A DNA stretch of 43,610 bases from positions 1 to 43,610 of the forward strand of contig JBGQJX010000001.1 of NCBI GenBank assembly GCA_041499255.1, read 5' to 3'. Positions 746 through 43,610 of this stretch are shown piece by piece. The position numbers and the translations under genes are program-made. The notes beneath the pieces were generated by a model. It ran no database searches and had not been told where the DNA came from. It saw only the letters and a list, made by a program, of their open reading frames with translations. Origin of the DNA: Ktedonobacteraceae bacterium. GTDB lineage: Bacteria; Chloroflexota; Ktedonobacteria; Ktedonobacterales; Ktedonobacteraceae. How positions within the stretch are numbered: position 1 is the stretch's first letter; every line of letters starts with the position of its first letter.

Positions 746-2199
746 GGCAGGGAGACCCGTCTCCCTTTAGGGGACGGGAGGAACTGCCGCAAAAGCACCC
801 TTCTCACCCTCTTGGCTTCTCACGCCTACTGTGATAAACTACCTGTGTGAAACAACTACTCTCGGCAAAACTTCAATTGCATACGAACCCTGAGCAATTT
901 CAGGCACTTCGTCGCACGCAACTGGCCTACCGCGATGGCCTCAATGCCGCGAGCACCTATGCTTTTGCGCATGGCAAAACCAGTAGCAATCAGACCTTAC
1001 ACCGGGGGATGTATACAGCATTGCGTGCGACGTATCACCTTCCCTCACAGTTAGCCTGTAGCGTCGAGCGACACGTTGCTGCCACCTATAAAGGACTGTG
1101 GACAAAGGTCAAGAAGAATGCCGCCGCACGCAAAGCTGGGATGACCAAGAAGCGCTACAAAGGACTGGACCAGGCTCCCAAGTTTGTTTCACCTACGATG
1201 CAGTATACCTATGAGCGTGATTACACCTTCAAGACGAAGCACCAGGTCAGCCTGAAGACGCTTGAGGGACGTCTGACCCTCTCCTACCAGGGCAAGGACG
1301 CGCATGTGGCGCTTCTTCAACACGGAGCCACGCTTGGCGATGCCAGGCTCTGGTATGATCAACCAAAGAAACGGTTCTACTTGCTCGTGTCCCTTGAGGT
1401 CGAGGTTGCGGATCCAACCTTTGAGAGCCACAAAGCGGTCGTGGGGGTAGACGTCGGGATCCGCTATCTCGCGGTCACTTCCACTGCTACCGGCAGACCT
1501 ACCTTTCACTCAGGAAAACACGTGCGCGAGAGCGCCAATCACTCTGCGAGACTCAGGAAACGCTTGCAGCAGAAAGGCACTCGCAATGCAACGCGGCGGT
1601 TACGTCGGATTGCCCAACGAGAGAGACGGTTGAAACAGCAAGCGAACCACGTCGTCTCAAAACACATCGTGATGACCCACCCACAGGCCTTGATCGGCTT
1701 AGAGCAGTTGACCGACATCCGTGAACGCACCAGGCGACGCAAACGACGTGGGAAAAAGAACGGCCAAGGGACAGAACCCGTCTCCCCGAAAGCACGCAAA
1801 GCCAACCGGGGCTACGCGCAATGGTCTTTTGCTGAACTGCACCACATGATCGCGTACAAGGCCGCGCTTGCGGGTTCGATGGCCATCAAAGTGGATGCCA
1901 ACGCAACTTCCAAGGCCTGTCCCAAATGTGGCTATAGCAGTGACAAGAACCGCCCACACAAGGGACTGCGGTTCCATTGTCAGAACTGTCACTATGAGTT
2001 GCATGCCGATTTAGTGGGTGCGCGGAACATCACGATGCGAACGCTCTTGCTCCGACAGGATTGGGGCAAGACGGGGCACTTGTCAGTTGCCCCTGATGCG
2101 TCGGACAAAGAAGCCAAAGCAGCGCGTCTCACCAGATACGCTGAATTGCGGTGGAGTCCAGATGCAAGCTCATCCCCTTCTAGGGAATTGAGTCACTGA
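746..2199 (+). mobile_element. solo-tnpB IS200/IS605-family (IS1341-like) element, copy 1; boundaries approximate
   Basis: Intact tnpB without tnpA. A ~43-nt imperfect palindrome (746-788, GGCAG...CCCGTC...GGGAGGAA.CTGCC) lies upstream and is also found upstream of the second copy (5341-5385). Similarity between the copies stops at the tnpB stop codon. Confidence 0.55.
847..2199 (+). CDS. tnpB: TnpB-like RNA-guided endonuclease (IS200/IS605 OrfB)
   Basis: GTG start. RuvC-I VGVDVG, Glu in ALIGLEQL, zinc ribbon CPKCGY...CQNCHY, RuvC-III HADLVGARNI. 450 aa. Confidence 0.9.
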   Translation: MKQLLSAKLQLHTNPEQFQALRRTQLAYRDGLNAASTYAFAHGKTSSNQTLHRGMYTALRATYHLPSQLACSVERHVAATYKGLWTKVKKNAAARKAGMTKKRYKGLDQAPKFVSPTMQYTYERDYTFKTKHQVSLKTLEGRLTLSYQGKDAHVALLQHGATLGDARLWYDQPKKRFYLLVSLEVEVADPTFESHKAVVGVDVGIRYLAVTSTATGRPTFHSGKHVRESANHSARLRKRLQQKGTRNATRRLRRIAQRERRLKQQANHVVSKHIVMTHPQALIGLEQLTDIRERTRRRKRRGKKNGQGTEPVSPKARKANRGYAQWSFAELHHMIAYKAALAGSMAIKVDANATSKACPKCGYSSDKNRPHKGLRFHCQNCHYELHADLVGARNITMRTLLLRQDWGKTGHLSVAPDASDKEAKAARLTRYAELRWSPDASSSPSRELSH

Positions 2200-5452: not shown

Positions 5453-5528
5453 TGGTAGCGGGAACAGGATTCGAACCTGCGACCTCCGGGTTATGAGCCC
5501 GACGAGCTAACCACTGCTCTATCCCGCG
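5453..5528 (-). tRNA. tRNA-Met, initiator type (anticodon CAU)
   Basis: Hand-folded cloverleaf: CGCGGGA acceptor with a C1xU72 mismatch, anticodon loop CTCATAA closed by three G:C pairs, TTCGAAT T-loop, encoded CCA. Confidence 0.85.
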
Positions 5529-5559: not shown

Positions 5560-5635
5560 TGGTAGCGGGGGGAGGACTCGAACCTCCGACCTTTGGGTTA
5601 TGAGCCCAACGAGCTAACCACTGCTCCACCCCGCG
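5560..5635 (-). tRNA. tRNA-Met, initiator type (anticodon CAU), second copy
   Basis: CGCGGGG acceptor with a C1xU72 mismatch, GGGCTCATAACCC anticodon arm, TTCGAGT T-loop, encoded CCA. Confidence 0.85.
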
Positions 5636-9494: not shown

Positions 9495-10478
9495 TTATTT
9501 TGCAGCTAAGGTTTCTCCTACAATGTGTGGGTAGCCGCGCAGAAATTCTTCCACGCTCATAGCTTTTTTCCCTTCCAGTTGAAGCTGCTGGATTACCAGC
9601 AGACCATCGCCGGTTGTGATTGCCAGTGATTTGCGTCCTGCATCCTGCAGGAGAGAGACCATTCCTGGGGTGGTTGAAGTGGTCGATGTGGTATGTGGAA
9701 AAGGATGAGCTGAGAGTATTTTCAGCAGCTTGCCGCGCCAGTAGGTGTAGGCGCCGGGCCAGGGAGTATAGGCGCGGATTTTGCGGGCCAGTACGGCAGC
9801 AGGCTCTCCCCAACTAATTGCTCCATCTTCTTTGCGTAACATGCGAGTGTGGGAGGCGGCCTGGTGATCCTGCGGTACAGGGGTGATCTTTCCTGAGACC
9901 CAGAGGGGTAATGCTTCAATCAGTGCCTGAGCTCCCAGGTCAGCTAATTTGCCGGTGAGGCTGCCGGTTGTCTCGTCTTCGCTCAGTGGAATGCTGCGTT
10001 TGAGTAGTATTGGGCCTGTATCAATGCCGGCGTCAATAAGCATGATGGTTACGCCGGTTTCTGTATCGCCATGCAGGATAGCCTCGGAGATGGGCGAGAC
10101 GCCGCGATATTTTGGCAGTAATGAAGCGTGGATGTTGAGTGTTCCGAAACGAGGGAGATCAAGTACTTCTTGTGGGAGGATTTGTCCGAAAGCTGCAACG
10201 ATGTAGAGGTCGGCATGATACACTGCCAGGGCTTCTCTATTTTCAGTCCGCTTGAACGATCCTGGCTGCCAGACGGGGATACTGTGGGCTAAGGCAGTCT
10301 GTTTTACAGGTGAAAAAACAATGGCCTGTCCTCGCCCTACGGGCTTATCCGGACGGGTGATGACCGTGACTATGTCGTAGCCTTCTGGGAGTACCGCGCC
10401 GGGTGGCCTTCCCTTGATGAGCGCTTCAAGAGCGGGTACCGCGAATTGCGGAGTACCCATGTAGATAATACGCAACAT
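9495..10478 (-). CDS. fmt: methionyl-tRNA formyltransferase
   Basis: N-terminus IIYMGTPQFAVP, the HASLLPKYRG motif, and a C-terminal Fmt domain. Confidence 0.9.
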   Translation of the reverse strand: MLRIIYMGTPQFAVPALEALIKGRPPGAVLPEGYDIVTVITRPDKPVGRGQAIVFSPVKQTALAHSIPVWQPGSFKRTENREALAVYHADLYIVAAFGQILPQEVLDLPRFGTLNIHASLLPKYRGVSPISEAILHGDTETGVTIMLIDAGIDTGPILLKRSIPLSEDETTGSLTGKLADLGAQALIEALPLWVSGKITPVPQDHQAASHTRMLRKEDGAISWGEPAAVLARKIRAYTPWPGAYTYWRGKLLKILSAHPFPHTTSTTSTTPGMVSLLQDAGRKSLAITTGDGLLVIQQLQLEGKKAMSVEEFLRGYPHIVGETLAAK

Positions 10479-20739: not shown

Positions 20740-22158
20740 CTAGCGCGCTTGAATGCGTACAGTGACCTTCGGGACAATTGCTTCTTCGGCAGGAGTGGCC
20801 AGCGAACGGATTGCGTCAATGGTTTCCTGGGCGTTTCTGACGAAATCGGCCCGCACGGGAAGGCGCGCTTTGAACTCTGCTACAGTAACATCGTCGAGGA
20901 AGCGTACGCCCTCGTTATCTAACATTACACGCGGCAACAAAACGAGATCGCCCAGGTTGCTGTTTTCCTCCAACGCTGCGAGGACATCCTGTCCGCAGAG
21001 CAGCCCGGCGACGGTCACTTCTTCGCCAAAGAACTTGTTCACGATGGGTAAGACCTGCACTTCAAGCTGTTCAGCCTGGCGTATATCTTCAGCGAACTGT
21101 TCAATGACCGGGTGGGCCATGACGCTGGTGACCAGCGTTACGCGGCGTGGCTGAGGCATGGCAAGAGGAAGTTTGCGCTTGCTGCGGTTCCACTGATCGA
21201 TCAAGAAGCGCGTCATGCCGACACCGTTCTCTATCTGCGAATAGGAGCCGTAGTGTTGGGCAGGTGGGAAATCGCGACCCGTGATGAAGTACCACTCATC
21301 GGAGAGGTAGACAAACGGATAGCCGTCGGGGTCTTCCGCCGCAAAACGCTGCTGGTGGAGCTCGACCTGTGCGATAATAGTCTCGGCTTCCTGGCGAGTA
21401 TAGTGTCGCAGGGATGGCAGATCGCCGGTCTTGAGCATGTTATTGTACTTCGTAAGCCCCACGGGCACAACAGAGATAGATTCGACGATAGGCCGCAGTT
21501 CGGCTAAATCACGGATGCTGCGATCAAGTTGCTCGCCATCGTTGATAGTGGGGCAGAGGACGAGCTGGGTGTGACAGGTGATATGCATTTCTCCCAGCCG
21601 TTTGATGTGGTCAATAATATCACCGGCGCGCGGGCCATCAACCATCTTGCGGCGCAAGTCGGGGTCGGTTGCATGCACGGAGACATAGAGAGGAGTCAGC
21701 TTTTGTTCATCGAGGCGCTGCCAGTCATGCTCTTTGAGATTGGTCAGCGTAATAAAGTTTCCAAAGAGAAATGAGTAGCGGTAATCATCATCTTTAATAT
21801 AGAGCGAGGAACGCATGCCATGAGCCAGGCCTGGTTGCGGCGCAAAACGTTCCGGTAGTCCTTTGATAAAACAGAAGACACATTTATTGGCACATTGTCG
21901 AATAAAGGGCGCTGGTTCTTCGCCGAAGAGTACACCGAGGTTTTCATCGGCTGACTTGGTTATACGAATTTCGTGTAGGGTTTGCTGTCGCTCGAAGCCG
22001 ATGATCAACTCTTCATCCGCGACATAAAAGCGATAATCGACGAGGTCGCGGACCAGGTTGCCATTGATCGTGCGAATAAGATCGCCAGGTTGTAGGCCCG
22101 CGAGGTCGGCTGGGCTTTCGGGCACTACTTCACGCACCCATCCATACATTTTTGGCAT
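20740..22158 (-). CDS. PDZ-domain radical-SAM-like protein (DUF512 family)
   Basis: N-terminal PDZ (SPADLAGLQPGDLIRTING), a CxxxCxxC cluster (CANKCVFC), and a long C-terminal DUF512-like region. Confidence 0.8.
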   Translation of the reverse strand: MPKMYGWVREVVPESPADLAGLQPGDLIRTINGNLVRDLVDYRFYVADEELIIGFERQQTLHEIRITKSADENLGVLFGEEPAPFIRQCANKCVFCFIKGLPERFAPQPGLAHGMRSSLYIKDDDYRYSFLFGNFITLTNLKEHDWQRLDEQKLTPLYVSVHATDPDLRRKMVDGPRAGDIIDHIKRLGEMHITCHTQLVLCPTINDGEQLDRSIRDLAELRPIVESISVVPVGLTKYNNMLKTGDLPSLRHYTRQEAETIIAQVELHQQRFAAEDPDGYPFVYLSDEWYFITGRDFPPAQHYGSYSQIENGVGMTRFLIDQWNRSKRKLPLAMPQPRRVTLVTSVMAHPVIEQFAEDIRQAEQLEVQVLPIVNKFFGEEVTVAGLLCGQDVLAALEENSNLGDLVLLPRVMLDNEGVRFLDDVTVAEFKARLPVRADFVRNAQETIDAIRSLATPAEEAIVPKVTVRIQAR

Positions 22159-33827: not shown

Positions 33828-34046
33828 CTTTCGTAAGTTATTGTCTTTAATCTCATGAAGCCAGGCGACCACGTGGTATGATTGAACAGGAAAACCCCCT
33901 AAGGATGATATACGCTGCTGCACCGGTACCGCCCCTTCAACTGGGTGCGAGAGGATTTTGCGAACGATGGATGTAGGACGTTGGAGGAGGTGGCGAGGGT
34001 TATTTATGCGGTTTGATTGTGTTGAGCGAAGAATTACGAGTTGTAG

Positions 34047-34119
34047 CGTCGGTGGCGGGACTCGAACCCACGGCCTATTCTTTAGGAGAGAATTGCTCTA
34101 TCCACTGAGCTACACCGAC
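34047..34119 (-). tRNA. tRNA-Arg (anticodon CCU)
   Basis: Hand fold: GTCGGTG acceptor, GCTC/GAGC D-stem, ATTCT-CTCCTAA-AGAAT anticodon arm, GTGGG-TTCGAGT-CCCGC T-arm. No encoded CCA. Confidence 0.85.
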
Positions 34120-34244: not shown

Positions 34245-34317
34245 GGCCCTGTAGCACATCGGTATAGTGCAATCGCCTTATAAGCGATAGAACGCAGTTC
34301 AACTCTGCGCGGGGCTA
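34245..34317 (+). tRNA. tRNA with anticodon UAU (tRNA-Ile2-like)
   Basis: Hand fold: GGCCCTG/CGGGGCT acceptor (two G-U pairs), GCAC/GTGC D-stem with GG in the loop, ATCGC-CTTATAA-GCGAT anticodon arm, CGCAG-TTCAACT-CTGCG T-arm, 73 nt. Confidence 0.6.
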
Positions 34318-34680
34318 TGTCGTTGAAACCATATCTTTGTTAACCTCATTTTCTAGTTACCTTCTATGATACTTCTGTGTTGTGCCTCTAAATTCCCACA
34401 TCAATATCTCATGCAACCAAACGTAGTGCTAGATAAATTAAACTTATGTAATTTTTGTGATCTCTTTCTATTGCAATTATTGATAGATAAGTTTATACTT
34501 GAAGCGAGTATGCTTTACACCCTTTCGAATCCGTCTATCTCTTTGTCGTTTAAAGGTAGGTGGTGCTGAACCTACAATTAGCACAAACGACGAGCATGGT
34601 GTGAATTTCGCAACTATTTGGTATACAACAGTACTAGTGTAATCTTAATGTGATACAAATGGGATAGGTTACCGTTTAAT

Positions 34681-35652
34681 ATGCCAGGAGAAGATCCACG
34701 GTCTGATGTGCCAGAGATGGCGACCCTACTCGAATTCAGGAAGAAGCACAACCAACGCACCGTCCTCTTCTTAGGTGCCAGGGCAGGAGGGCTCTTCCGC
34801 AGCGCGCAGTTTTACGAAACAATACGTCAATTCAGTAAGCGAGACTTTGCGGAACTCACTCAATTCGAGCAATTTAGCGAATGCTACAATGTGTTGCAAG
34901 AAGAACGGTTTAGTGAGCGCGATCGCTTCAGCATTTTATCAGGTTCCCTGCGAGAAATCGCCACAATCGATGCGGACGTGTGCCTGGCAGAGCTCGTTAA
35001 GGAAGGAGTATTCGACGTGGTGATCTCAACCAACATTGATGATCTTGCGGAGCAGGCGTTCACTCAAGTTGGGATGCGCGATTTAGAGCACTTCCAGGTC
35101 ATAGTCCCCAGACGTGGCACCGACCTTGGCATCATTCACTCTCAAAAGAAAGATTCTAGCTGGCTAATCAAAACTTTTGGAGATTTACCTTCCCGTTCTT
35201 ATAAAATTGTTAAGCGCCATACTCATCTGGTAGATGAAGAGTATCCCGAGTTGAAAAAGTTCCTGGAAGAAATCTTGTCGGAAGATATTCTCGTGATCGG
35301 ATTGGATCCCTTCTGGGATGCAGGGATATTGTCGGCTTTCCCCACTCGCGGGGGATCCTACTGGTTTGTGAACGAGCAAGAAGAGACGATTGATCCTTTG
35401 CTGACACGTACCTGGCAAGGAAGACATATCAAATATATTACAGGAAGTGCCGGCAGTTACGAGAACTTCTTGAGGGCGTTATACTGGCATCTCAGCAAGG
35501 GAAGAGTGCCGGGAAGCTACCAGTTAATACGCGATATAAACATTCAACTTCAAACGATACGCCACGAGCTGAACCAACTTCAAAAAATACGTGACGACAT
35601 TTCGCGTCTACGAAAAGATATCCTGCCGTCAAACCTCACTGAGGGGAAGTGA
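34681..35652 (+). CDS. SIR2_2-like (DHS-like NAD-binding fold) protein with C-terminal coiled coil
   Basis: The order of motifs VLFLGARAGG ... VVISTNIDDLAEQAF ... LIKTFGDL ... ILVIGLDPFWDAGIL mirrors SIR2_2 (lfLGAG, TTNYD.l.E, KlHG, flGYS..D). The sirtuin-type His position is Phe. The C-terminal 45 aa have a heptad-like pattern. Confidence 0.7.
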   Translation: MPGEDPRSDVPEMATLLEFRKKHNQRTVLFLGARAGGLFRSAQFYETIRQFSKRDFAELTQFEQFSECYNVLQEERFSERDRFSILSGSLREIATIDADVCLAELVKEGVFDVVISTNIDDLAEQAFTQVGMRDLEHFQVIVPRRGTDLGIIHSQKKDSSWLIKTFGDLPSRSYKIVKRHTHLVDEEYPELKKFLEEILSEDILVIGLDPFWDAGILSAFPTRGGSYWFVNEQEETIDPLLTRTWQGRHIKYITGSAGSYENFLRALYWHLSKGRVPGSYQLIRDINIQLQTIRHELNQLQKIRDDISRLRKDILPSNLTEGK

Positions 35653-35685
35653 TTCGATAAATTTATTGCAGTGGAGAGAGCTATT

Positions 35686-37263
35686 ATGGAGAGCTTTGTC
35701 AATCGGGAGACGGAACTACAGATTATCGATAAGGCATTTGATGCCCTCATTGATAAAAAGAGTCTTTTACGTACCCCTATTGTGGATTTTTATGGCGTTG
35801 AAGGCATAGGCAAGACCGCCATTCTGAAGAAAATAGAACAGAAATGCAACGATCTCAATATACCTAACATCTGGGCCAACGCCAGCCTGGATATCCCCCA
35901 GCTTTCGCGCGAGATCACTCAGCAGTTGCAAACAAAATATCGCGTGGAGCTGCAAAATGATGAAGAGGATTGGTCTCACCGACCCCTCAGTGCCACCAGA
36001 GCTTTGCTCGAACGTGGGCCAGTTGTGATGCTATTGGATTCTGTAGACACTACCGACGTCGAGCAGGTCAGGTGGCTTGAAACGATGCTGCGTGACCTGA
36101 TTGAAGATAATACGCTTTTCGTGGTACTCACAAGTAAGAGAATGTTAGCATTTGAGCGCGAGCGGTCCGTAGCTCGTAAGCTTACCTTTGTTCCTGTCAA
36201 ACCATTCGATCGCAGCAATAGCGAACTCTATTTGAATAGCATTAGTGATCGCATCGATCCAGAGTTGCGCAAGGTGATTTTCGAATGGACGCGCGGCTAC
36301 CCCCTGGCGATTGATGTCATGGTGCAAGCTATTCTTAACGAGAGACTTGATCCGAGAAGGCCGCAAGATCGGCAGCATTTGTTAAACATTATTATGGGGC
36401 AGGTGATTGATCGGGGTATCCTCGCAAACGTGGAACCTGTCGAACTCGGCTGGTACCAATCCGCATTAACACTCCTTTCTGTCCCCAGGCGTTTCAACCT
36501 GGTGATCATGCAGGATATGATCGAAAATTTTGCTCCAGAACTGAGGCTGGAAAGCAGCCTGGCATACATGGGCTTGCCAAAGAGAATTAATGCAGCAACC
36601 GATGTACTCAGTTGGAACATGCCTCGCGCGGGCTTCTCCGTTGATGCGCCTATTCGCCACATTTTTTTGCTGAAGCAGCGCATACAACAACCCGAGACGT
36701 ATGCAACTATCAATCGTTTCCTGGCAGAGATCAATAAGCGTTTCGCGAAAGAAGTACCCGGTTCTGATCGTGTGCGCTATTTGCGAGAGTACCTCTATCA
36801 TAGCGCCAGTGCTGGCGATGACCAGGCGCTCCCCTCTATCGTGGAACGGACGGTGCGGGAGATCATTGCCGGACCTCCCGAATCGTTCTTACAATTTTTT
36901 GAGGAGTTCTCGCGGGACGAAGAACTCAAAGAAGTGTTGGGTAGTTCTGTCAACATCGCCTTGTCGCTTATCCATAGACACCTGGCTGAGACTAGCAGGC
37001 AGTCCGCCAAAGAATCATCTGGAGCGGACCATTTACGTGCGCTGCAGGATATTTTTTACCACCTCATGAACGATCCAGAAAACATTGGCCTGCCATCAAT
37101 TCTGATACATTACCTGGAGGAAGTCATACAAAATGAGCTTCCAGAGACCTCTTTCAAACTCTTTGAAGAGCTTTCGCGCGATGAAAGATTCAAAAAAGCG
37201 TTGGGGCAAGATTTCGATAGGTTCTCTCTCATCATCCATAATAATTTATCCACAGAAAGATAA
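35686..37263 (+). CDS. STAND-class P-loop NTPase (NB-ARC/AAA_16-like) with two C-terminal ~67-aa repeats
   Basis: FVNRETEL lead-in, Walker A GVEGIGKTA, Walker B VVMLLDSVD, GxP motif TRGYPLAI. The ATG at 35686 has a GGAGAGAG RBS; an alternative GTG is at 35671. Confidence 0.8.
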   Translation: MESFVNRETELQIIDKAFDALIDKKSLLRTPIVDFYGVEGIGKTAILKKIEQKCNDLNIPNIWANASLDIPQLSREITQQLQTKYRVELQNDEEDWSHRPLSATRALLERGPVVMLLDSVDTTDVEQVRWLETMLRDLIEDNTLFVVLTSKRMLAFERERSVARKLTFVPVKPFDRSNSELYLNSISDRIDPELRKVIFEWTRGYPLAIDVMVQAILNERLDPRRPQDRQHLLNIIMGQVIDRGILANVEPVELGWYQSALTLLSVPRRFNLVIMQDMIENFAPELRLESSLAYMGLPKRINAATDVLSWNMPRAGFSVDAPIRHIFLLKQRIQQPETYATINRFLAEINKRFAKEVPGSDRVRYLREYLYHSASAGDDQALPSIVERTVREIIAGPPESFLQFFEEFSRDEELKEVLGSSVNIALSLIHRHLAETSRQSAKESSGADHLRALQDIFYHLMNDPENIGLPSILIHYLEEVIQNELPETSFKLFEELSRDERFKKALGQDFDRFSLIIHNNLSTER

Positions 37264-37269
37264 ACACCT

Positions 37270-39951
37270 ATGCCGACACAAGTACAAGATGTCCCAGATA
37301 ACTTTATCGGGCGTATAACAGAAATAGATATTTTTACCAACTGGTTGTCGGACCCCAACGCCCCGTGGATCCTGTATTTACATGATGAGTCCAAAGAAAG
37401 GGCAAAAAAGGGAGGAGTCGGCAAAACCTGGTTACTCAGAAAGTTTGCTACACTGGCGAAGCAGCAACCGAAGAACTTCGCAATTGTGATGGTTGACTTC
37501 TTTAACGTGGCTGACCGGGACGGCGTTATCGTGGCTGAACGTGTTGTCCAGGGATTACAAGAAATCTACCCGCAGTGGTCAGCCCGCTCGTTCAGGGCGT
37601 CGCTTGAGGAGTATGGCGATGCCATCAATGCAGGCAATATTGATGTAGCGGATATCCGGGAACAATTGTCGCTTGCCTTGATTGCCGACCTGGAGCAGTT
37701 GCATGAGCAACTGCTTGAAACCGATAGCCATCTGCTGGTGTTTTTCGACACGTTTGAACTGATCGAGCAGAATCCGGTCAGTGCTGTCCTGCGCGTCTCA
37801 CATACATTTCCAGACAACTATCGTTTCCCACGCATTAGGGCAGTTATAGCAGGGCGCAACGCTCTTGATTGGGATCACCCAAACTGGCGAGGACGAAAGC
37901 AAGAGGTTCAGCGTGTTGCCATCGAGCCGTTCAACCAGCAAGAGCTGGCACAATATATCAATGCACAATCCATCGAAACATTGGATGCCTCATCAGAGCA
38001 GGCTGCGGCATTATATGAACGAACCGAGGGCCGTCCCATCCTGGTTGGATTGGTGACGGATGTCGTAAACCGCCGGATTACGACTATCGATAACCTTATC
38101 ACTATTCCCAAAGCTGATTTCGAGTCCCATCTTATTTCCAAAGTGAATGACCTGGACGACCCAATCAATTGGAGTATCCTGTTCATGGCCCATGCCTATC
38201 ACCGCTTTAATTTAAATCTCTTGAATTCTATATTGAGCTACTCGTCTCTGGTAAAATCGGCACAGGAGATAAAACACCAGGAGTGGTCAGAGGAGTTGCC
38301 AACGCTCTCATTTGTGCGGCAGGCTGGTTCTGGCGACGATTTTGTCCTCCACGATGAAATGCGCAACCTGGTAACGCGGAACTGGTGGGATGTGCAGGAT
38401 ATCGACCGGCGCTACCGCTGCGATGTCAGTCGCGGCACTGTCAGCTATTACGAGCAGGAAATTGCCAGTGTGCAGAACGAACAGTTGCGCCAGGTGTACG
38501 TAGTCGAGATGTTATATCACAAGTTGTTCCTGGACGTGGAAGATGGGTTGAAATTCTTTGATCGACATTTTAACCGGGCCATCAACCTGTGGCTGACGGC
38601 ATATGCGCGATCGCTGCTGCAAGAGACGCATCATTATTTGCGTTATATGTCTCAAGCACAACTCTACAATCTGACGCTGTCCGAGGCGAAACTTTTGCGC
38701 AAGGAAGAAAAGCCGAAAGAGGCGTTTGCCCTCTATCAGCAACTAGAGCAGGAAGCAAAGCCGCATTGGTTAGAAATCCATCGTGCCGACCTCCTCCACG
38801 AGAAGGGCCATTGTTATCTTCAGATGAGCAATTTCGCCGGTGCGATTGATTGTTTCACACAAAGCCTGGAAATTGAAGCGACGCGTGGTGATGAGACGCG
38901 TCGTGCTGAAGTTCTCTACTTACTGGGCTATATCTATCGTCGCGAGGGACAATTAGACAAGGCGGCACAATATTACGAAGATAGTATTGCCATCCACAAA
39001 AAATTAGGCAACTTGCGCTCCTATGCTAACGTGCTCAATAGCATTGCTTACCTGTACAGGCTGCAAGGAAAAATGGAGGAAGCCCTGCGCAATTGCAAGA
39101 TTGCTTTAAGCATTCGCCAGGATTTGTTCCAGCAGGGTAAAACGAGCGAGGTCTCTGTCGGCTTAAGTCTCAGCACTATGGGTGTCATCTACCTGAATAC
39201 AGATGATCTTGTAAGCGCCGAAAACGCATTTCGCGAAGCCCTCGAGATTTTCGCCCGCGCGGGTCATAAAAAAGGCATCGCATCAATGTATATCCGTTTC
39301 GGACAGGTAGAGATGAATCGAGGCAATTTGAGCCAGGCCATACAATGGTTTGAAAAGGGCTATTATGCTTCGCGGGCGATTGATATGGAAGCACAGATTA
39401 ACAGCCTGAACAAGCAGGGCTGGGTCCATGTGCTGCAAAGCGTTCTGGAAGAATCCACGGAGGCGCGGCAAAGCAAGTTGATAGAGTCGATACCATTCTT
39501 CGAGCAGGCGATAGAACTGGCCAGGGAGGTGTTTGACTACTACCAGGAAGCAGAATCGTTAATCGACCTTGCCGACGTGCTCGAACGCCTTAACCGCCAT
39601 GGGCCATCACAGCAATCGTTGAAAGAGGCTGAAGACATCGCGAAACGCTATAACTACAACCTGTTGCTGGGCATCGCAGAAGAGTTCCAGGGTGATCTTC
39701 GATACCATGCAGGCGACTATAGCCGCGCATTTGAGCATTTTGCAGCCTCTTGCCGGTACATGGCTCTTTACAATCCTATCCGGTACAACAAGGCCTTGCG
39801 TAAACTGCTTGATACACTGCTTAAAACGCCCAGGAGTGAACTCCCTGCTATCACAACCGCGCTTGTTGAGTACTGGTCAGAGCAAGGATTGGCAGAGAAA
39901 TTCCCTGAGTTGATAAAGACATGCGAGGAGGTTAGTGGCCTTATGGTCTAG
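37270..39951 (+). CDS. NB-ARC-like STAND NTPase fused to TPR repeats
   Basis: FIGRITEI lead-in, Walker A KGGVGKTWL, Walker B LLVFFDTFE, GxP-like TEGRPILVGL. The C-terminal ~400 aa carry TPR_12-like repeats (e.g. LLGYIYRREGQLDKAAQYYEDSIAIHKKLGN). Confidence 0.85.
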   Translation: MPTQVQDVPDNFIGRITEIDIFTNWLSDPNAPWILYLHDESKERAKKGGVGKTWLLRKFATLAKQQPKNFAIVMVDFFNVADRDGVIVAERVVQGLQEIYPQWSARSFRASLEEYGDAINAGNIDVADIREQLSLALIADLEQLHEQLLETDSHLLVFFDTFELIEQNPVSAVLRVSHTFPDNYRFPRIRAVIAGRNALDWDHPNWRGRKQEVQRVAIEPFNQQELAQYINAQSIETLDASSEQAAALYERTEGRPILVGLVTDVVNRRITTIDNLITIPKADFESHLISKVNDLDDPINWSILFMAHAYHRFNLNLLNSILSYSSLVKSAQEIKHQEWSEELPTLSFVRQAGSGDDFVLHDEMRNLVTRNWWDVQDIDRRYRCDVSRGTVSYYEQEIASVQNEQLRQVYVVEMLYHKLFLDVEDGLKFFDRHFNRAINLWLTAYARSLLQETHHYLRYMSQAQLYNLTLSEAKLLRKEEKPKEAFALYQQLEQEAKPHWLEIHRADLLHEKGHCYLQMSNFAGAIDCFTQSLEIEATRGDETRRAEVLYLLGYIYRREGQLDKAAQYYEDSIAIHKKLGNLRSYANVLNSIAYLYRLQGKMEEALRNCKIALSIRQDLFQQGKTSEVSVGLSLSTMGVIYLNTDDLVSAENAFREALEIFARAGHKKGIASMYIRFGQVEMNRGNLSQAIQWFEKGYYASRAIDMEAQINSLNKQGWVHVLQSVLEESTEARQSKLIESIPFFEQAIELAREVFDYYQEAESLIDLADVLERLNRHGPSQQSLKEAEDIAKRYNYNLLLGIAEEFQGDLRYHAGDYSRAFEHFAASCRYMALYNPIRYNKALRKLLDTLLKTPRSELPAITTALVEYWSEQGLAEKFPELIKTCEEVSGLMV

Positions 39952-40002
39952 TAAACATCTACGCCATCTTATAAGTGCCTACAATGAGCGTACAACACAG
40001 AT

Positions 40003-40041
40003 CTCTAGAAGTGAAACGCAGCCTGTACCTCACTTCTAGAG
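40003..40041 (+). promoter_or_regulatory. 12-bp perfect hairpin in the 207-nt gap before the rSAM gene
   Basis: ctctagaagtga / tcacttctagag with a 15-nt loop and no U-tract. Possible attenuator or processing site. Confidence 0.3.
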
Positions 40042-40081
40042 GCTGAGGAACGATTTATCATATGGTGGTACCAGGCTTAAT

Positions 40082-40165
40082 ATGCAGTTCTTCGTACCTG
40101 AGAAAATGTCGTGCGGTGAAAGTATTGTGTTCAAAGTAGAGCAGCGTTTATTGGCAGGATGTTAA
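40082..40165 (+). CDS. 27-codon ORF, speculative RiPP-type precursor peptide
   Basis: MQFFVPEKMSCGESIVFKVEQRLLAGC. Its stop lies 2 nt before the ATG at 40168 of the rSAM/SPASM gene and overlaps the alternative start at 40159. RBS is weak and there is no homology evidence. Confidence 0.2.
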   Translation: MQFFVPEKMSCGESIVFKVEQRLLAGC

Positions 40166-41700
40166 TAATGGATATCTGGCTTGACTCGACCCCAACCCAT
40201 TGGTTCACTCGCTCTGAATGTGATGAATGTAGTGAATGTTTTAATAACAATAACAGTCCCTCATCCTCACTCAAGTTCTCTCCGACTGCGGTAGACTTTC
40301 AGCACATTCGCACCGGCTATTTACAGCAAGCAACGCTACTCCATATGCAAGAATGCTCAGCCGGGCGCTGGCTTGTCTGCAACCCCACTGGATCAGGGCA
40401 GCTTGCTGTTGTAGACCAGCAAACCCTTTTTCTTCTTGAACAGTTTCGCACTCCTACCTCTCTCTCTGACGTACAGCATGTGCTAACGACGTACCCGCCA
40501 GAGGATATTGAAAAGGCTGTTGCATTATTCTACAATATGGGCTTTCTGCGCGAACTGGGCGAGCGCAATCCAATCAATAAAGAGCCGCAGTTTCACACGC
40601 TCTCAGCCTGGTTACATGTTACCAATGCCTGCAATTTGCGCTGCGATTATTGTTATTTACACAAGACTTCCGAGCATATGACCAGCGATACAGCACAACG
40701 CGCAGTCGATGCCGTCTTCAGGTCAGCCACAAAGCAAGGATTCAAGCAAGTACTGCTCAAATATTCTGGAGGAGAGGCCAGTTTACATATGGCCAATGTT
40801 GTGGCGATCCATGACTACGCCGCCCAATTGGCACAAAAGCACGCCATCACCTTGCACGCTTCTATCTTCAGCAACGGCGTCTCCCTGTCACAGCGTGCTA
40901 TCGCTCACCTCAAAGAGCGTAATATCGGCATAATGATCTCTTTAGATGGTATTGGGGCGTACCATGATTGCCAGCGCCCATTCATCAATGGACAAGGTTC
41001 TTTTAAATATGTGGATCGCACGATCAACTCACTACTAATGCATGATTTCGCCCCGCATATATCCGTGACTGTCTCCCAGCGTAATCTGCCAGGTTTGCCT
41101 GACCTCCTCACCTATATTTTGGATCGCGAGTTGACATTTTCTCTTAATTATTATCGGGAAAATGATTGTTCGGCGCACATAACCGATCTGCAATTTACGG
41201 ATCAGCAGACGATTGCGGCCATGCGCTCGGCCTTCGCTATTATCGAACGCCAGCTTCCCAGGTGGTCATTGCTTGGGTCTCTTATTGACAAGGCCAGTTT
41301 GCTAACACCACATCACCACACGTGTGGGGTGGGTCAGAGTTACCTTGTGATCGATCAGTATGGCGGCGTCGCCAAGTGCCACGCCGATATCAAGCGCACA
41401 GTCACCACCATCGATGCGGATGATCCATTACAGGTCATTAAGGATGATACTGCTGGCGTACAAGGACTATCTGTAGATGAAAAAGAGGGCTGTCGCACCT
41501 GCGATTGGCGCTACTGGTGTACCGGAGGATGTCCACTGCTAACCTACCGGATCACGGGAAGAAGTGATGTCAAATCTCCCAATTGCAATATTTATAAAGC
41601 ACTCTTCCCTGAAGCGCTCCGTCTTGAAGCCATGCGCTTGTTAAAATACACTCCACCCGTTGCTCTTATGAAGGTAAGATCGACGGGTGTTCAAGTTTAA
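40159..41700 (+). CDS. radical SAM/SPASM-domain enzyme with N-terminal RRE/PqqD-like extension
   Basis: Radical SAM cluster CNLRCDYC, SPASM CRTCDWRYWCTGGC (Cx2Cx5Cx3C), plus HHTCGVGQ and PNCNIYK. The ~130-aa N-terminal extension contains LAVVDQQTLFLLEQFRTPTSLSDV...AVALFYNMGFL. An alternative start is at 40168. Confidence 0.85.
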   Translation: MLIMDIWLDSTPTHWFTRSECDECSECFNNNNSPSSSLKFSPTAVDFQHIRTGYLQQATLLHMQECSAGRWLVCNPTGSGQLAVVDQQTLFLLEQFRTPTSLSDVQHVLTTYPPEDIEKAVALFYNMGFLRELGERNPINKEPQFHTLSAWLHVTNACNLRCDYCYLHKTSEHMTSDTAQRAVDAVFRSATKQGFKQVLLKYSGGEASLHMANVVAIHDYAAQLAQKHAITLHASIFSNGVSLSQRAIAHLKERNIGIMISLDGIGAYHDCQRPFINGQGSFKYVDRTINSLLMHDFAPHISVTVSQRNLPGLPDLLTYILDRELTFSLNYYRENDCSAHITDLQFTDQQTIAAMRSAFAIIERQLPRWSLLGSLIDKASLLTPHHHTCGVGQSYLVIDQYGGVAKCHADIKRTVTTIDADDPLQVIKDDTAGVQGLSVDEKEGCRTCDWRYWCTGGCPLLTYRITGRSDVKSPNCNIYKALFPEALRLEAMRLLKYTPPVALMKVRSTGVQV

Positions 41701-41726
41701 GAAATGTATTGAGGGGTCATATATAG

Positions 41727-43442
41727 ATGGCAAGAGAAGCTTCACGTTCTGATGTGCCAGAGATGGCGACCCTACTCGAATTCAGGAAGAAGCACAACCA
41801 ACGCACCGTCCTCTTCCTGGGCGCCAGGGCAGGGGGCCTCTTCCGCAGCCAGCAGTTTTACGATACATTACGGCGGTTCAGTAAGCAGAATTTTGCTGAA
41901 CTGTCTCGATTCGAGCAGTTTGGCGAGTGCTACCAGGTACTGCAAGAAGAACGACTCAGTGAGCGCGATCGCTTCAGCATTTTATCAAGTTCCCTACGAG
42001 GTGTTGGCACCATTGAAGCGGATGTTTGCCTGGCAAAGCTCGTCAAGGATGGCGACTTCGACGTGGTGATCTCTACCAACATAGATGACCTGGCGGAGCA
42101 GGCGTTTACTCAAGTGGGGATGCGTGAATTAGAAGGCTTTCAGGTACTTATTCCCAGGCGTGGTACCGACCTGAGCATTATTCACTCCCAGAAGAACGTT
42201 GCTTGCTGGCTTGTCAAGACCTTCGGAGATTTACCCTCCCACTCCTATAATATCGTCAAACGTCATACTCACCTGGTGGATGATGAGTATCCCCAGTTGA
42301 GAAAGTTCCTGGAAGATACTCTGGCAGGAGATATTCTCGTCATAGGGCTGGACCCTGTCTGGGATGCAGGGATACTGGCGGCTTTTCCCAACAGGGGAGG
42401 GTCCTACTGGTTTGTGAACGAGCAAGAACTGGCAGATCATCCTCTCGTGGTACATACCTGGTGGGGAAGAAATGTCAAATACATTGCTGGCGCCGAAGGT
42501 AGCTATGAGAGTTTCTTGAGAGCGTTATATGGGCATCTCTCCAAGGAGAGTGTGCCAGTAAGTCACGAGGTTATGCACGATAACGATCAAGGGCAAACAA
42601 CACGCCACAATCAGCCCGTCTCACAGCAAGGTGAACCAGGGAAAGACATAACTGGTTTATCCGCCCATAAAGGCTCTATTGCTGACGTGCTGTTGGTTAC
42701 AGTCACGGAAGTTGAGGCAAGAGCGGTACTTGACCAGTTTCCCGAGGCCAGATTGCGCTTCATCGGTGATCGAGTCTATTATGACCTGGGAGTGATCGGC
42801 GGAGCAAAAACCTTTATGGTGCAATCCTGGATGGGGGCCGGTGGGTCTGGCGGCGCTCTCCTTACTGTCGCGGAAGGCATACAAGCTGTCTTGCCAACCG
42901 CCGTGGTCATGGTTGGCATCGCTTTTGGCTTTCACCCAAAGAAGCTGCGTATAGGCGACATTCTGATCTCACAACAGCTCCTGGGGTATGACCTGCAGCG
43001 AGTTGGGACTGGTTCTGATGACAAACTGCTTATCCATCCACGAGGAGACCGAGTCTCAGCTTCGGTCCGCCTGTTAGACAGGTTTAAAGCTGGCAAGCTT
43101 ACCAGTAATCTCCAGGATTGGCCAAAGTCACCCAGGATAGAATTTGGCCTTGTTCTCTCCGGGTCAAAGCTGGTTGACAATCAAGACTTTCGTGACCAGC
43201 TACATGCTATCTCTCCGGAAGCCATCGGTGGGGAGATGGAGGGCGCAGGCCTGTACGATGCGGCACAGCGCTATAAAGTTGACTGGATCCTGGTCAAGGC
43301 GATCTGTGACTGGGCAGACGGCAAAAAGCATATGAAGAAGGAAGAACGCCAGAGACTGGCCGCCGAGAATGCCGCCCGTTTCACCATCCAGGTCATTCAA
43401 CAGGGTGGATTCGCTGACCAGCGGCGGCAGGAGAAGTCATAG
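41727..43442 (+). CDS. SIR2_2-like module fused to PNP_UDP_1 (nucleoside phosphorylase/nucleosidase) domain
   Basis: The N-terminal ~280 aa are paralogous to 34681-35652 (same motifs, LVKTFGDL). The C-terminal ~250 aa contain VMVGIAFG and IGGEMEGAGLY, typical of PNP_UDP_1. Confidence 0.8.
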   Translation: MAREASRSDVPEMATLLEFRKKHNQRTVLFLGARAGGLFRSQQFYDTLRRFSKQNFAELSRFEQFGECYQVLQEERLSERDRFSILSSSLRGVGTIEADVCLAKLVKDGDFDVVISTNIDDLAEQAFTQVGMRELEGFQVLIPRRGTDLSIIHSQKNVACWLVKTFGDLPSHSYNIVKRHTHLVDDEYPQLRKFLEDTLAGDILVIGLDPVWDAGILAAFPNRGGSYWFVNEQELADHPLVVHTWWGRNVKYIAGAEGSYESFLRALYGHLSKESVPVSHEVMHDNDQGQTTRHNQPVSQQGEPGKDITGLSAHKGSIADVLLVTVTEVEARAVLDQFPEARLRFIGDRVYYDLGVIGGAKTFMVQSWMGAGGSGGALLTVAEGIQAVLPTAVVMVGIAFGFHPKKLRIGDILISQQLLGYDLQRVGTGSDDKLLIHPRGDRVSASVRLLDRFKAGKLTSNLQDWPKSPRIEFGLVLSGSKLVDNQDFRDQLHAISPEAIGGEMEGAGLYDAAQRYKVDWILVKAICDWADGKKHMKKEERQRLAAENAARFTIQVIQQGGFADQRRQEKS

Positions 43443-43445
43443 AGC

Positions 43446-43610
43446 ATGAAGCCACCTCAACAGGATATACAGCCTGACCGCGAACATACGCGTAAACCCT
43501 TCTTCCGGATACCCTGGCTGGTTGGCGGACTGGGAATTATGACCATCTGTGCTATTGCTCTCCTGGCAACCTTCGTCCTGGTGAGGCAGGGAGTTTCCCA
43601 GGGACTCATC
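43446..43610 (+). CDS. membrane protein, partial (runs off the window)
   Basis: ATG 3 nt after the previous stop. Open for 55 codons to the window end. TM helix WLVGGLGIMTICAIALLATFVLV. Confidence 0.4.
   Translation, partial: MKPPQQDIQPDREHTRKPFFRIPWLVGGLGIMTICAIALLATFVLVRQGVSQGLI

Follow-up and report, generated by a model that had tools for sequence, protein, structure and literature searches.

What function joins, in one row of co-directional genes, two SIR2-like modules, two STAND NTPases, a radical S-adenosylmethionine (SAM)/SPASM enzyme and a PNP-type nucleosidase domain? The question is raised by the last part of a 43,610-nucleotide (nt) stretch of DNA, hereafter the window, from a Ktedonobacteraceae bacterium (GCA_041499255.1, contig JBGQJX010000001.1, positions 1-43,610 of the forward strand). 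Five genes of the forward strand, spanning 34681-43442, make up what we call the cassette: A (34681-35652, 323 amino acids, aa), B (35671-37263, 530 aa, with a GTG start), C (37270-39951, 893 aa), E (open reading frame, ORF, 40159-41700) and F (41727-43442, 571 aa), separated by gaps of 18 (A-B), 6 (B-C), 207 (C-E) and 26 nt (E-F). We propose that they may be an operon-like unit, the form taken in Ktedonobacteria by a STAND-NTPase conflict (abortive-infection or programmed-death) system that is widespread, apparently undescribed and works by the mechanism set out below, a reading that we regard as evenly poised between right and wrong. The defining feature is an obligatory pair of a STAND protein with tetratricopeptide repeats (TPRs) and a radical SAM/SPASM enzyme, the latter with a built-in DCAC-type peptide. 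The original prediction, made from the sequence of the window alone, had counted six or seven co-directional genes; the five just named do stand as one unit, and its domain assignments for these five were largely confirmed by Pfam and NCBIfam searches, whereas the two further members, D and G, are not conserved.

A first step towards an answer is to see whether the genes travel together. Homologues of F are found in Ktedonobacteria (Ktedonosporobacter, Thermogemmatispora, Reticulibacter), whose contigs we have compared, and the complete A-B-C-E-F set is present in about 20 Ktedonobacteria loci from Ktedonosporobacter, Dictyobacter, Thermogemmatispora, Reticulibacter and metagenome-assembled genomes (MAGs). 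The order is kept, at ~40-55% identity, in Ktedonosporobacter (locus L001), Thermogemmatispora carboxidivorans (L005), Reticulibacter (L006) and a MAG (L008), and is permuted in L007 (F-A-B-C-E) and L004 (A-B'-F-B''-C-E). The flanks differ from locus to locus, from ABC transporters with Hsp90/GroEL to ftsA/ftsZ with sugar transporters or NB-ARC-WD40 and pPIWI genes. Since the same gene set stands amid unrelated flanks, the linkage is functional and not a matter of inherited context, and the recurrence of the five genes is far beyond chance. Conservation of this neighbourhood, which had been put forward as a check on the original prediction, is therefore a property of many Ktedonobacteria loci. 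The opposite view would be a chance juxtaposition at a tRNA hotspot of a SIR2/STAND system (A-B-C), an unrelated radical SAM gene and a SIR2-PNP gene. It could draw on the tRNA genes adjoining the locus, on a hairpin within the 207-nt gap between C and E and on a direct repeat shared by A and F that could be a recent duplication, but it is largely refuted by the synteny of five genes in some 20 loci with different flanks and by the adjacency of C and E, often translationally coupled, across phyla; we find it scarcely credible.

How far the system extends could be seen by following E. An alignment of its orthologues was scanned against one genome per species, giving 201 loci (39-60% identity, 201 species genomes), of which the best 80 were kept. 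These best 80 of 201 comprise 17 of Ktedonobacteria type, 26 from Actinomycetota (Streptosporangiaceae, Amycolatopsis, Lentzea, Saccharothrix, Asanoa and others), 36 from other Chloroflexota (Anaerolineae, Roseiflexus, Chloroflexus, Oscillochloris, Ardenticatenaceae, Caldilineales, Thermoflexales) and one from a MAG labelled Deferribacteres. The lineages that host E are overwhelmingly filamentous or mycelial. In metagenomes the system is represented by more than 2,400 protein clusters. All ORFs of the retained loci were clustered, and 67 of the loci have enough upstream DNA to be informative: a C-like STAND-TPR gene lies beside E in 64 of them and a B-like NTPase is present in at least 57. The gap between C and E is mostly 50 nt or less, or else the two genes overlap by 4 nt. 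The invariant core is the STAND-TPR protein C plus the radical SAM/SPASM enzyme E, the latter with a RiPP recognition element (RRE; RiPP, ribosomally synthesised and post-translationally modified peptide), usually accompanied by B, and A and F, found in Ktedonobacteria only, belong to a lineage-specific output layer.

What takes the place of A and F elsewhere is informative about the kind of output. In Actinomycetota the operon has exactly three genes, a TIR_2-STAND fusion (TIR_2, 74 bits), the STAND-TPR protein and the radical SAM enzyme. In other Chloroflexota, one or two genes for AAA proteins that bear an OmpR-type winged helix-turn-helix (wHTH; Trans_reg_C) lie ahead of the core, and individual loci of this group have a B-like NTPase fused to CHAT (L069) or a stand-alone CHAT protein (L078). 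A canonical SIR2_2 domain (99.7 bits; GAGVS, TTNWDD, IKLHGD) is fused to a B-like NTPase in L067, and Peptidase_C25-like proteins appear as outputs in L025 and L034. Such a swappable layer (TIR, SIR2, caspase-like, PNP, wHTH) is, by analogy, a pattern typical of conflict systems. The idea that STAND sensors drive interchangeable death effectors has thereby gained strength, as the outputs seen in relatives include TIR, canonical SIR2, CHAT/caspase and PNP domains. We also observed that in L025 and L034 the Peptidase_C25-like genes lie upstream of C, replacing a recognisable B, and that a GNAT acetyltransferase gene (~170 aa) is inserted between C and E in seven Chloroflexota loci (L037, L041, L053, L055, L058, L072, L084), often overlapping the start of E.

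The two NTPases differ in what surrounds their P-loops, and similarity between B and C is undetectable outside the P-loop region. B is a STAND/NB-ARC-type NTPase (Pfam NB-ARC, 25.1 bits, above the cut-off of 23.5) with Walker A GVEGIGKT (35794-35817) and Walker B VVMLLD, and its C-terminal region is helical and carries no repeat-type sensor. B orthologues adjoin A in every Ktedonobacteria locus, and the B-like proteins of other lineages carry fused TIR, canonical SIR2 or CHAT domains; we predict for B the role of a helper or executor NTPase coupling to the output modules. C has the Walker A motif KKGGVGKT (37405-37428) and the Walker B motif LLVFFD, followed by ~400 aa of TPRs (~38650-39850), and matches TPR_12 (107 bits), TPR_MalT (57 bits) and AAA_16 (24.7 bits, below its gathering score) in Pfam; it is the predicted sensor. 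Comparison of B and of the NTPase part of C with the sequences of solved structures gave nothing significant. The C-terminus of B (window 36840-37260, residues ~390-530) contains a tandem repeat of ~37 aa, PESFLQFFEEFSRDEELKEVLG... and PETSFKLFEELSRDERFKKALG..., the copies being 41% identical (E = 7e-9). Similar F-x2-F-x3-L-x2-D-x-E motifs can be seen at the C-termini of B-like cluster representatives of the other lineages, in c4 and c5 and less clearly in c27. The repeat has no match in Pfam, and a Nif11-like leader in this region was ruled out, Pfam remaining empty even at E = 1.

The constant partner of C is the enzyme E. It matches Pfam Radical_SAM (41.9 bits) and has the radical SAM motif CxxxCxxC (C155, C159 and C162; 40630-40653), invariant in orthologues, and a SPASM motif, CRTCDWRYWCTGGC, that fits Cx2Cx5Cx3C. 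Over its full length it gives sub-threshold NCBIfam matches to PapB (130 bits against a cut-off of 340), a nif11-type family (126 against 519) and QhpD (114 against 453), and its relatives likewise fall below the equivalog cut-offs. Its profile finds the structure of CteB (5wgg, 4e-28), residues 73-280 of E aligning with 19-234 of CteB, RRE included, and the RRE-like domain of E can be placed at about aa 41-135. Foldseek searches with the model of E retrieved TigE, CteB, anSME and ChlB, with TM-scores of 0.6-0.68 to TigE and CteB. Judged by its sequence and its model, E is an RRE-radical SAM/SPASM enzyme of the peptide-maturase type, similar to CteB and PapB.

The most unusual part of E is what precedes the RRE. 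The true start is likely at 40168 (MDIWLD), because M-x-I-W-x-D is conserved in orthologues, and from there the protein runs through the MDIWLD strand and the stretch SECDECSEC (aa 16-24, 40213-40239) into the RRE-like domain. C18 and C24 are at least 90% conserved among 50 orthologues. An N-terminal extension with a Cys/acidic motif before the RRE is present in E of every lineage, the motif being CEDCACP(V)S in Actinomycetota, [EQST]DCAC[PA] or DCDCAC in other Chloroflexota and [DE]C-x(1-5)-[DE]C in Ktedonobacteria. It occurs in one to about five tandem copies, two or three of them in L038, L041, L055, L079 and L084. At the upper end, the N-termini of the E orthologues of L025 (~9527-10250) and L034 (~9515-10230) contain 4-5 tandem QCDCNCDCACLGEL units. 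The tail of 61 of the 79 complete E orthologues contains [DE]CxC, a motif that is never found in the remaining ~420 residues. Among 46 instances of DCAC, codon positions 1 and 2 are invariant and variation is confined to position 3, which indicates that the motif is translated as part of the E reading frame and kept by purifying selection. When the first ~145 residues of 36 diverse orthologues were aligned (mean column identity, 33%), D, C, A and C were the sole invariant or near-invariant columns before the radical SAM core.

CteB, PapB and QhpD all act on Cys-rich peptides, and PapB and QhpD form thioethers between Cys and Asp or Glu. By analogy with these enzymes, the Cys/acidic tail is probably E's own tethered substrate, modified in cis or between E molecules; we consider this the most economical reading because the nearest characterised relatives of E modify Cys-rich peptides. 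In the AlphaFold2 (AF2) model of E, aa 2-5 form a strand (pLDDT ~74), disorder extends over aa 9-35 and the RRE is modelled with confidence, an arrangement compatible with a leader-like strand followed by a flexible core. We know of no peptide-modifying radical SAM/SPASM enzyme with a conserved substrate-like tail of its own, and the literature that we searched describes none.

A separate precursor gene for E was looked for as well. ORF D (40082-40165, forward strand, 27 aa), which the original prediction had included in the system, was the nearest candidate. No conserved small ORF was found upstream of E in the six loci compared, so ORF D is not a precursor and thus not the substrate of the radical SAM enzyme; it is unconserved, and in one close locus small ORFs are missing altogether. 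An alternative 25-codon ORF (40062-40139) is not conserved either, and the 'CxCKECS' stretch that precedes E in L004 and L007 lacks an in-frame start codon. A precursor between C and E was discarded in view of gaps that are mostly 50 nt or less or overlaps, and one after E in view of downstream genes that are variable or on the opposite strand. In the Actinomycetota operon, which ends with E, precursor, peptidase and exporter genes were not found. L004 and L007 share a conserved stretch (…ATGCAA(A/G)GAATGTTCA…GTAGT…) right before E, which holds no usable ORF and may be an element of the 5' untranslated region.

These searches bear directly on a different interpretation of the locus, as a RiPP-like biosynthetic or signalling locus in which E would mature a Cys-rich peptide (the tail or a released product) into a secreted or intracellular signal, and B and C would be STAND regulators of the MalT/AfsR type and not invader sensors. 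The place of E in a peptide-maturase clade with an RRE speaks in its favour, as do the roughly 15 Chloroflexota loci with AAA-OmpR-type wHTH partners, the weak, TPR-only NCBIfam matches of C to AfsR, NsdA and HaaT, and a genomic context of housekeeping genes in place of a defence island. However, a conserved free precursor, leader peptidase or exporter was found in no lineage, no DNA-binding domain was detected in B or C by Pfam, and no NCBIfam RiPP model reached its cut-off. In addition, the domains swapped at the position of B (TIR, SIR2, CHAT/caspase, PNP) are typical suicide or immune effectors. We rate this interpretation as unlikely.

The output layer in the window consists of A and F. 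The SIR2-like module occupies aa ~10-275 of A, followed by a long C-terminal helix (aa 278-314), and aa 1 to ~295 of F. Both fall narrowly under the Pfam SIR2_2 gathering score of 24.5 bits (A, 24.2; F, 20.4). A family profile built from 26 modules and searched against solved structures matches KomC (5e-5), the Sir2 of SPARSA and ThsA, and the AF2 model of A (pLDDT 85, pTM 0.81) has DSR2, SPARSA Sir2, the AVAST5 filament and KomC as its best Foldseek matches (probability 1.0, TM-scores 0.5-0.6). The SIR2 fold of the N-terminal modules, as originally suggested, is in agreement with both profile and model.

The catalytic equipment tells a different story from the NAD+ depletion that had been envisaged for these modules. 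A and F both keep the Gly-rich loop (LGARAGGLFRS) and the STNIDD motif with the Asn of TNxD. The catalytic His of K-x-H-G is absent (IKTFGD and VKTFGD in A and F), with Phe in the His column, Phe166 of A (codon 35176-35178). In the profile alignment 'KvFGd' stands opposite 'KFHGD' of KomC, the Phe falling in the column of His146, and the titles of Protein Data Bank (PDB) entries flag this same position in defence SIR2 NADases through the mutants DSR2(H171A) and KomC(H146N). The K-x-H-G His is essential for the NADase activity of DSR2 and KomC. With Phe in place of the His of ThsA, DSR2 and KomC in both proteins, NAD+ depletion by the SIR2-like modules is unlikely. The modules fall in two types: type 1 (every A protein and, in the window, F as well) keeps the Gly-rich loop and TNID and has K-x-F-G-D, and type 2 (most F proteins elsewhere) often keeps KLHGS, but a 14-residue deletion has removed its Gly-rich loop. 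In the F-type modules of Thermogemmatispora the Asn and the His are both gone. The C-terminal fusion partner of the module is PNP in most cases, TIR_2 in L011, L014 and L052 and a caspase domain in P0017. The SIR2-like modules of A and F are probably pseudo-enzyme adaptors and not NADases, to judge from their residues, because the His is lost and the module is fused to interchangeable effectors (PNP, TIR, caspase). A degenerate module found once alone, in A and always beside B, and once fused to an effector, in F, is most simply read as a homotypic adaptor pair. The adaptors may still bind NAD-like ligands, and their logic would be akin to that of the effector-associated domains (EADs) of Kaur et al. 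(2020).

Two further observations concern this pair. In L006, L007, L012 and L020 the losses are complementary, the A-type module having lost the His and its F-type partner the Gly-rich loop. In the window, A shares 76% identity with residues 1-295 of F, and the 5' 300 nt of both genes (34681-34980 and 41727-42026) make up a direct DNA repeat, 84% identical, whose copies lie 7,046 bp apart, whereas the orthologous A and F modules of most other genomes are only ~20-25% identical. This difference suggests that the lineage underwent gene conversion or duplication recently, and the repeat is a possible route to deletion of B-C-E.

The effector proper would then be the C-terminal domain of F, a PNP_UDP_1/MTAN-like domain at about aa 319-560 (42681-43406). 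It scores 66.2 bits against the Pfam PNP_UDP_1 gathering score of 25.1, covering profile positions 4-232 of 233, and its best PDB matches are MTA/SAH (methylthioadenosine/S-adenosylhomocysteine) nucleosidases (6po4, 1.8e-13), aligned along the full length. GGEMEGAG, with the ribose-binding E-M-E, falls on GVEMEATA of 6po4, and ICDWADGK, with the catalytic Asp, on ISDGGDGK. The proposed PNP-family identity is upheld by the Pfam match, by this alignment and by the intact catalytic residues, from which the domain looks active and of effector type. In PADLOC it falls with two models, the CBASS PN-superfamily effector and PDC-M60C. Among its closest homologues (57-65% identity) the fusion partners are TIR, WD40, NB-ARC-TPR or Pfam PF19960/PF19962/PF19964, the last three of which we take to be EAD families of Kaur and co-workers.

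A less dramatic job for the same domain would be that of a metabolic helper, an MTA/SAH/5'-deoxyadenosine nucleosidase clearing the inhibitory 5'-deoxyadenosine by-product of E. MTA/SAH nucleosidases are known to clear 5'-deoxyadenosine, the nearest solved and curated relatives of the domain belong to this family, and F adjoins E in most Ktedonobacteria loci. Such a role is nonetheless unlikely, because E does without a PNP partner in Actinomycetota and other Chloroflexota and because a TIR or caspase domain can take the place of PNP in the SIR2-like fusion; the fusion partners of the closest homologues and the PADLOC grouping point the same way. Taking all this together we judge the helper role decidedly improbable and prefer a toxic effector.

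From these parts we derive the following mechanism for a conflict system. C would sense and B would help, as a paired NLR-like switch. E would put thioether-type cross-links into its own tethered N-terminal peptide, in the manner of CteB, PapB and QhpD. The tight coupling of C and E suggests that the TPR array of C binds E, most plausibly the modified tail, which the TPRs would read as a built-in ligand or checkpoint. B would carry or recruit the outputs, through TIR, SIR2 or CHAT fusions elsewhere and here through A. On activation, A and F would pair via their SIR2-like modules, bringing the PNP domain to the activated complex, where it might cleave the adenine nucleotide or nucleoside pool, as the CBASS Cap17 and Detocs ATP nucleosidases do.

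Is this one of the systems already named? The original prediction could name no known system with this combination of genes, and PADLOC, NCBIfam and literature searches gave no match to a named defence or RiPP system either. PADLOC, run on A-F and their relatives, recognised no named defence system and gave only generic matches: the radical SAM core hit pVip, the PNP domain hit the PN-superfamily effector and PDC-M60C, and A and F had weak hits to PDC-S65 and Ago-associated SIR2. No NCBIfam model reached its cut-off with the proteins of the window or with the trios from actinomycetes and Chloroflexota, and full-text searches of the published literature returned no description of the cassette, the sole analogy being Fxs (Kaur et al., 2020). 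In that comparative genomics study the Fxs peptide-processing system is coupled to a TIR-AP-ATPase-TPR protein, and the peptide, once modified, is predicted to act on the NTPase system as a signal or toxin (Haft; Kaur et al., 2020, eLife, PMC7159879, section 24). The cassette resembles this FxSxx-COOH system in linking a radical SAM/SPASM enzyme to TIR-bearing STAND/AP-ATPase-TPR proteins in actinomycetes and other multicellular bacteria. It differs in that E scores only 63 and 55 bits to FxsB (cut-off 370) and the actinomycete TIR only 26 of 130 bits to FxsC_Nterm, in having no FxsA-type precursor, HExxH peptidase or vWA-MoxR module, and in that the peptide sits inside the enzyme and the NTPase function is divided between B and C.

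Like the Avs/AVAST systems, the cassette combines a STAND NTPase that carries a repeat sensor with death effectors of the N-terminal kind. It comes particularly close to Avs5 (SIR2-STAND), since the model of A resembles the SIR2 domain of the AVAST5 filament (9nc9) and L067 encodes a fusion of canonical SIR2 with a B-like NTPase. Yet B, C and their actinomycete and Chloroflexota relatives have no PADLOC Avs/NACHT match, sensor and helper are two proteins, the effectors have genes of their own in the window, the SIR2 has no catalytic His, and the radical SAM/SPASM enzyme, an obligate partner here, is in no Avs system. ThsA of Thoeris, DSR2, KomC and the SIR2-APAZ protein of SPARSA have the same fold, Gly-rich loop and TNxD as A and F, but their His (H171 in DSR2, H146 in KomC) is Phe in both, and the module is fused to interchangeable effectors. 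CBASS Cap17 and Detocs DtcC are ATP nucleosidase effectors with PNP domains, and fungal NLRs carry PNP_UDP domains at their N-termini. F shares with Cap17 and DtcC a PNP_UDP_1/MTAN-like domain with intact catalytic residues as the output of an immune-type sensor; it differs in the fusion to a pseudo-SIR2 module, and neither a CD-NTase nor a histidine-kinase/response-regulator partner, as in CBASS and Detocs, was found in A-F by Pfam and PADLOC. Finally, E has the RRE-radical SAM-SPASM order of CteB (SCIFF), the PapB ranthipeptide synthase and QhpD, its best matches in sequence and structure, but it has no separate precursor, the DCAC or [DE]C...[DE]C motif being fused to its own N-terminus, and it partners STAND NTPases instead of peptidases or exporters.

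Several points weigh against the proposed conflict system and its mechanism. The main alternative for the Cys/acidic tail is that it could be a metal-binding or Fe-S-related element, and the tail is left disordered by AF2. The contacts A-F, A-B, B-C and C-E are deduced from gene linkage and domain logic. The loss of the His in A and F argues against NADase activity, short of proving inactivity. About 15 loci have AAA-wHTH partners only and no obvious death effector, so that the core could be a signalling or regulatory switch, with transcription among its outputs, that is not strictly immune. The Thermogemmatispora loci adjoin ftsA/ftsZ and no defence island, the cassette of the window has housekeeping neighbours, and no relatives of E were found on viral contigs.

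A more specific possibility, which we consider rather doubtful, is that E serves as an obligate built-in ligand or 'guardee' of the STAND-TPR sensor. The cross-linking state of its tail, which would depend on SAM, reduced Fe-S and an anaerobic-like redox state, would be read by the TPRs, and loss of SAM, Fe-S or redox balance, or an attack on E itself, would trip the paired-NLR switch towards TIR, SIR2, caspase or PNP. If this were true, a post-translationally cyclised self-peptide would be the checkpoint of an NLR.

The surroundings of the cassette agree with the early description of two tRNA genes followed by an AT-rich spacer, as confirmed by the tRNA coordinates and the GC profile. tRNA-Arg(CCT) (34046-34119, reverse strand) and tRNA-Ile(TAT) (34245-34317, forward strand) lie back-to-back just 5' of the cassette; the TAT anticodon of tRNA-Ile is uncommon in bacteria, where AUA is usually read by a lysidine-modified CAT tRNA. 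The spacer between the tRNAs and A (34318-34680, forward strand, 363 nt) has a GC content of 34-40%, and of 34-36% at 34300-34600, against ~50% for the whole window. By its position it probably holds a promoter; sigma-70-like sites are present at 34471-34499 and 34549-34578 (forward strand), and consensus matches in the spacer show no excess over the shuffle expectation. The unusually long gap between C and E contains a perfect 12-bp inverted repeat (40003-40041, CTCTAGAAGTGA / TCACTTCTAGAG, 15-nt loop), which is not followed by a T-tract and is absent from the list of terminator-like structures. On the other side, ORF G starts 3 nt after F on the forward strand (43446) and extends past the end of the window. 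Its membership, a transmembrane protein in the original prediction, did not hold up, because the gene that follows F varies among loci. In five Ktedonobacteria loci an NB-ARC/NACHT-WD40 protein (~1,200 aa) lies directly after F on the same strand (L001, 11773-15399; L006, 11811-15470; L008; L012; L020) and may be an extra, optional sensor, absent in the window. Further upstream of the cassette the window has housekeeping genes (DnaB, a DnaC-like loader, sugar epimerases), a TnpB/IS605 OrfB-type protein with OrfB_IS605 and Cas12f1-like TNB domains (847-2199, forward strand), a tandem pair of tRNA-Met(CAT) genes (5453-5528 and 5560-5635, reverse strand) and, 18 kb from the cassette, an unrelated second protein of radical SAM type (20740-22158, reverse strand; PDZ, Radical_SAM_2, DUF512).

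What, then, does the locus mean for the bacteria that carry it? The cassette defines a system that occurs in at least 200 species genomes from the filamentous Chloroflexota and Actinomycetota and is cleanly built: an invariant core of C and E, a helper NTPase and exchangeable outputs of the TIR, SIR2, caspase or PNP kind. Its SIR2-like modules would be natural cases of SIR2 domains turned into pseudo-enzyme adaptors, in two types with complementary losses (the His or the Gly-rich loop). STAND/NLR-like immune switches occur from bacteria to animals, and we know of none that needs a radical SAM enzyme. If the proposed mechanism holds, RiPP-type chemistry would be tied to NLR-type sensing, and the system would lend more support to the view that multicellular bacteria possess unexpectedly complex apoptosis-like systems.

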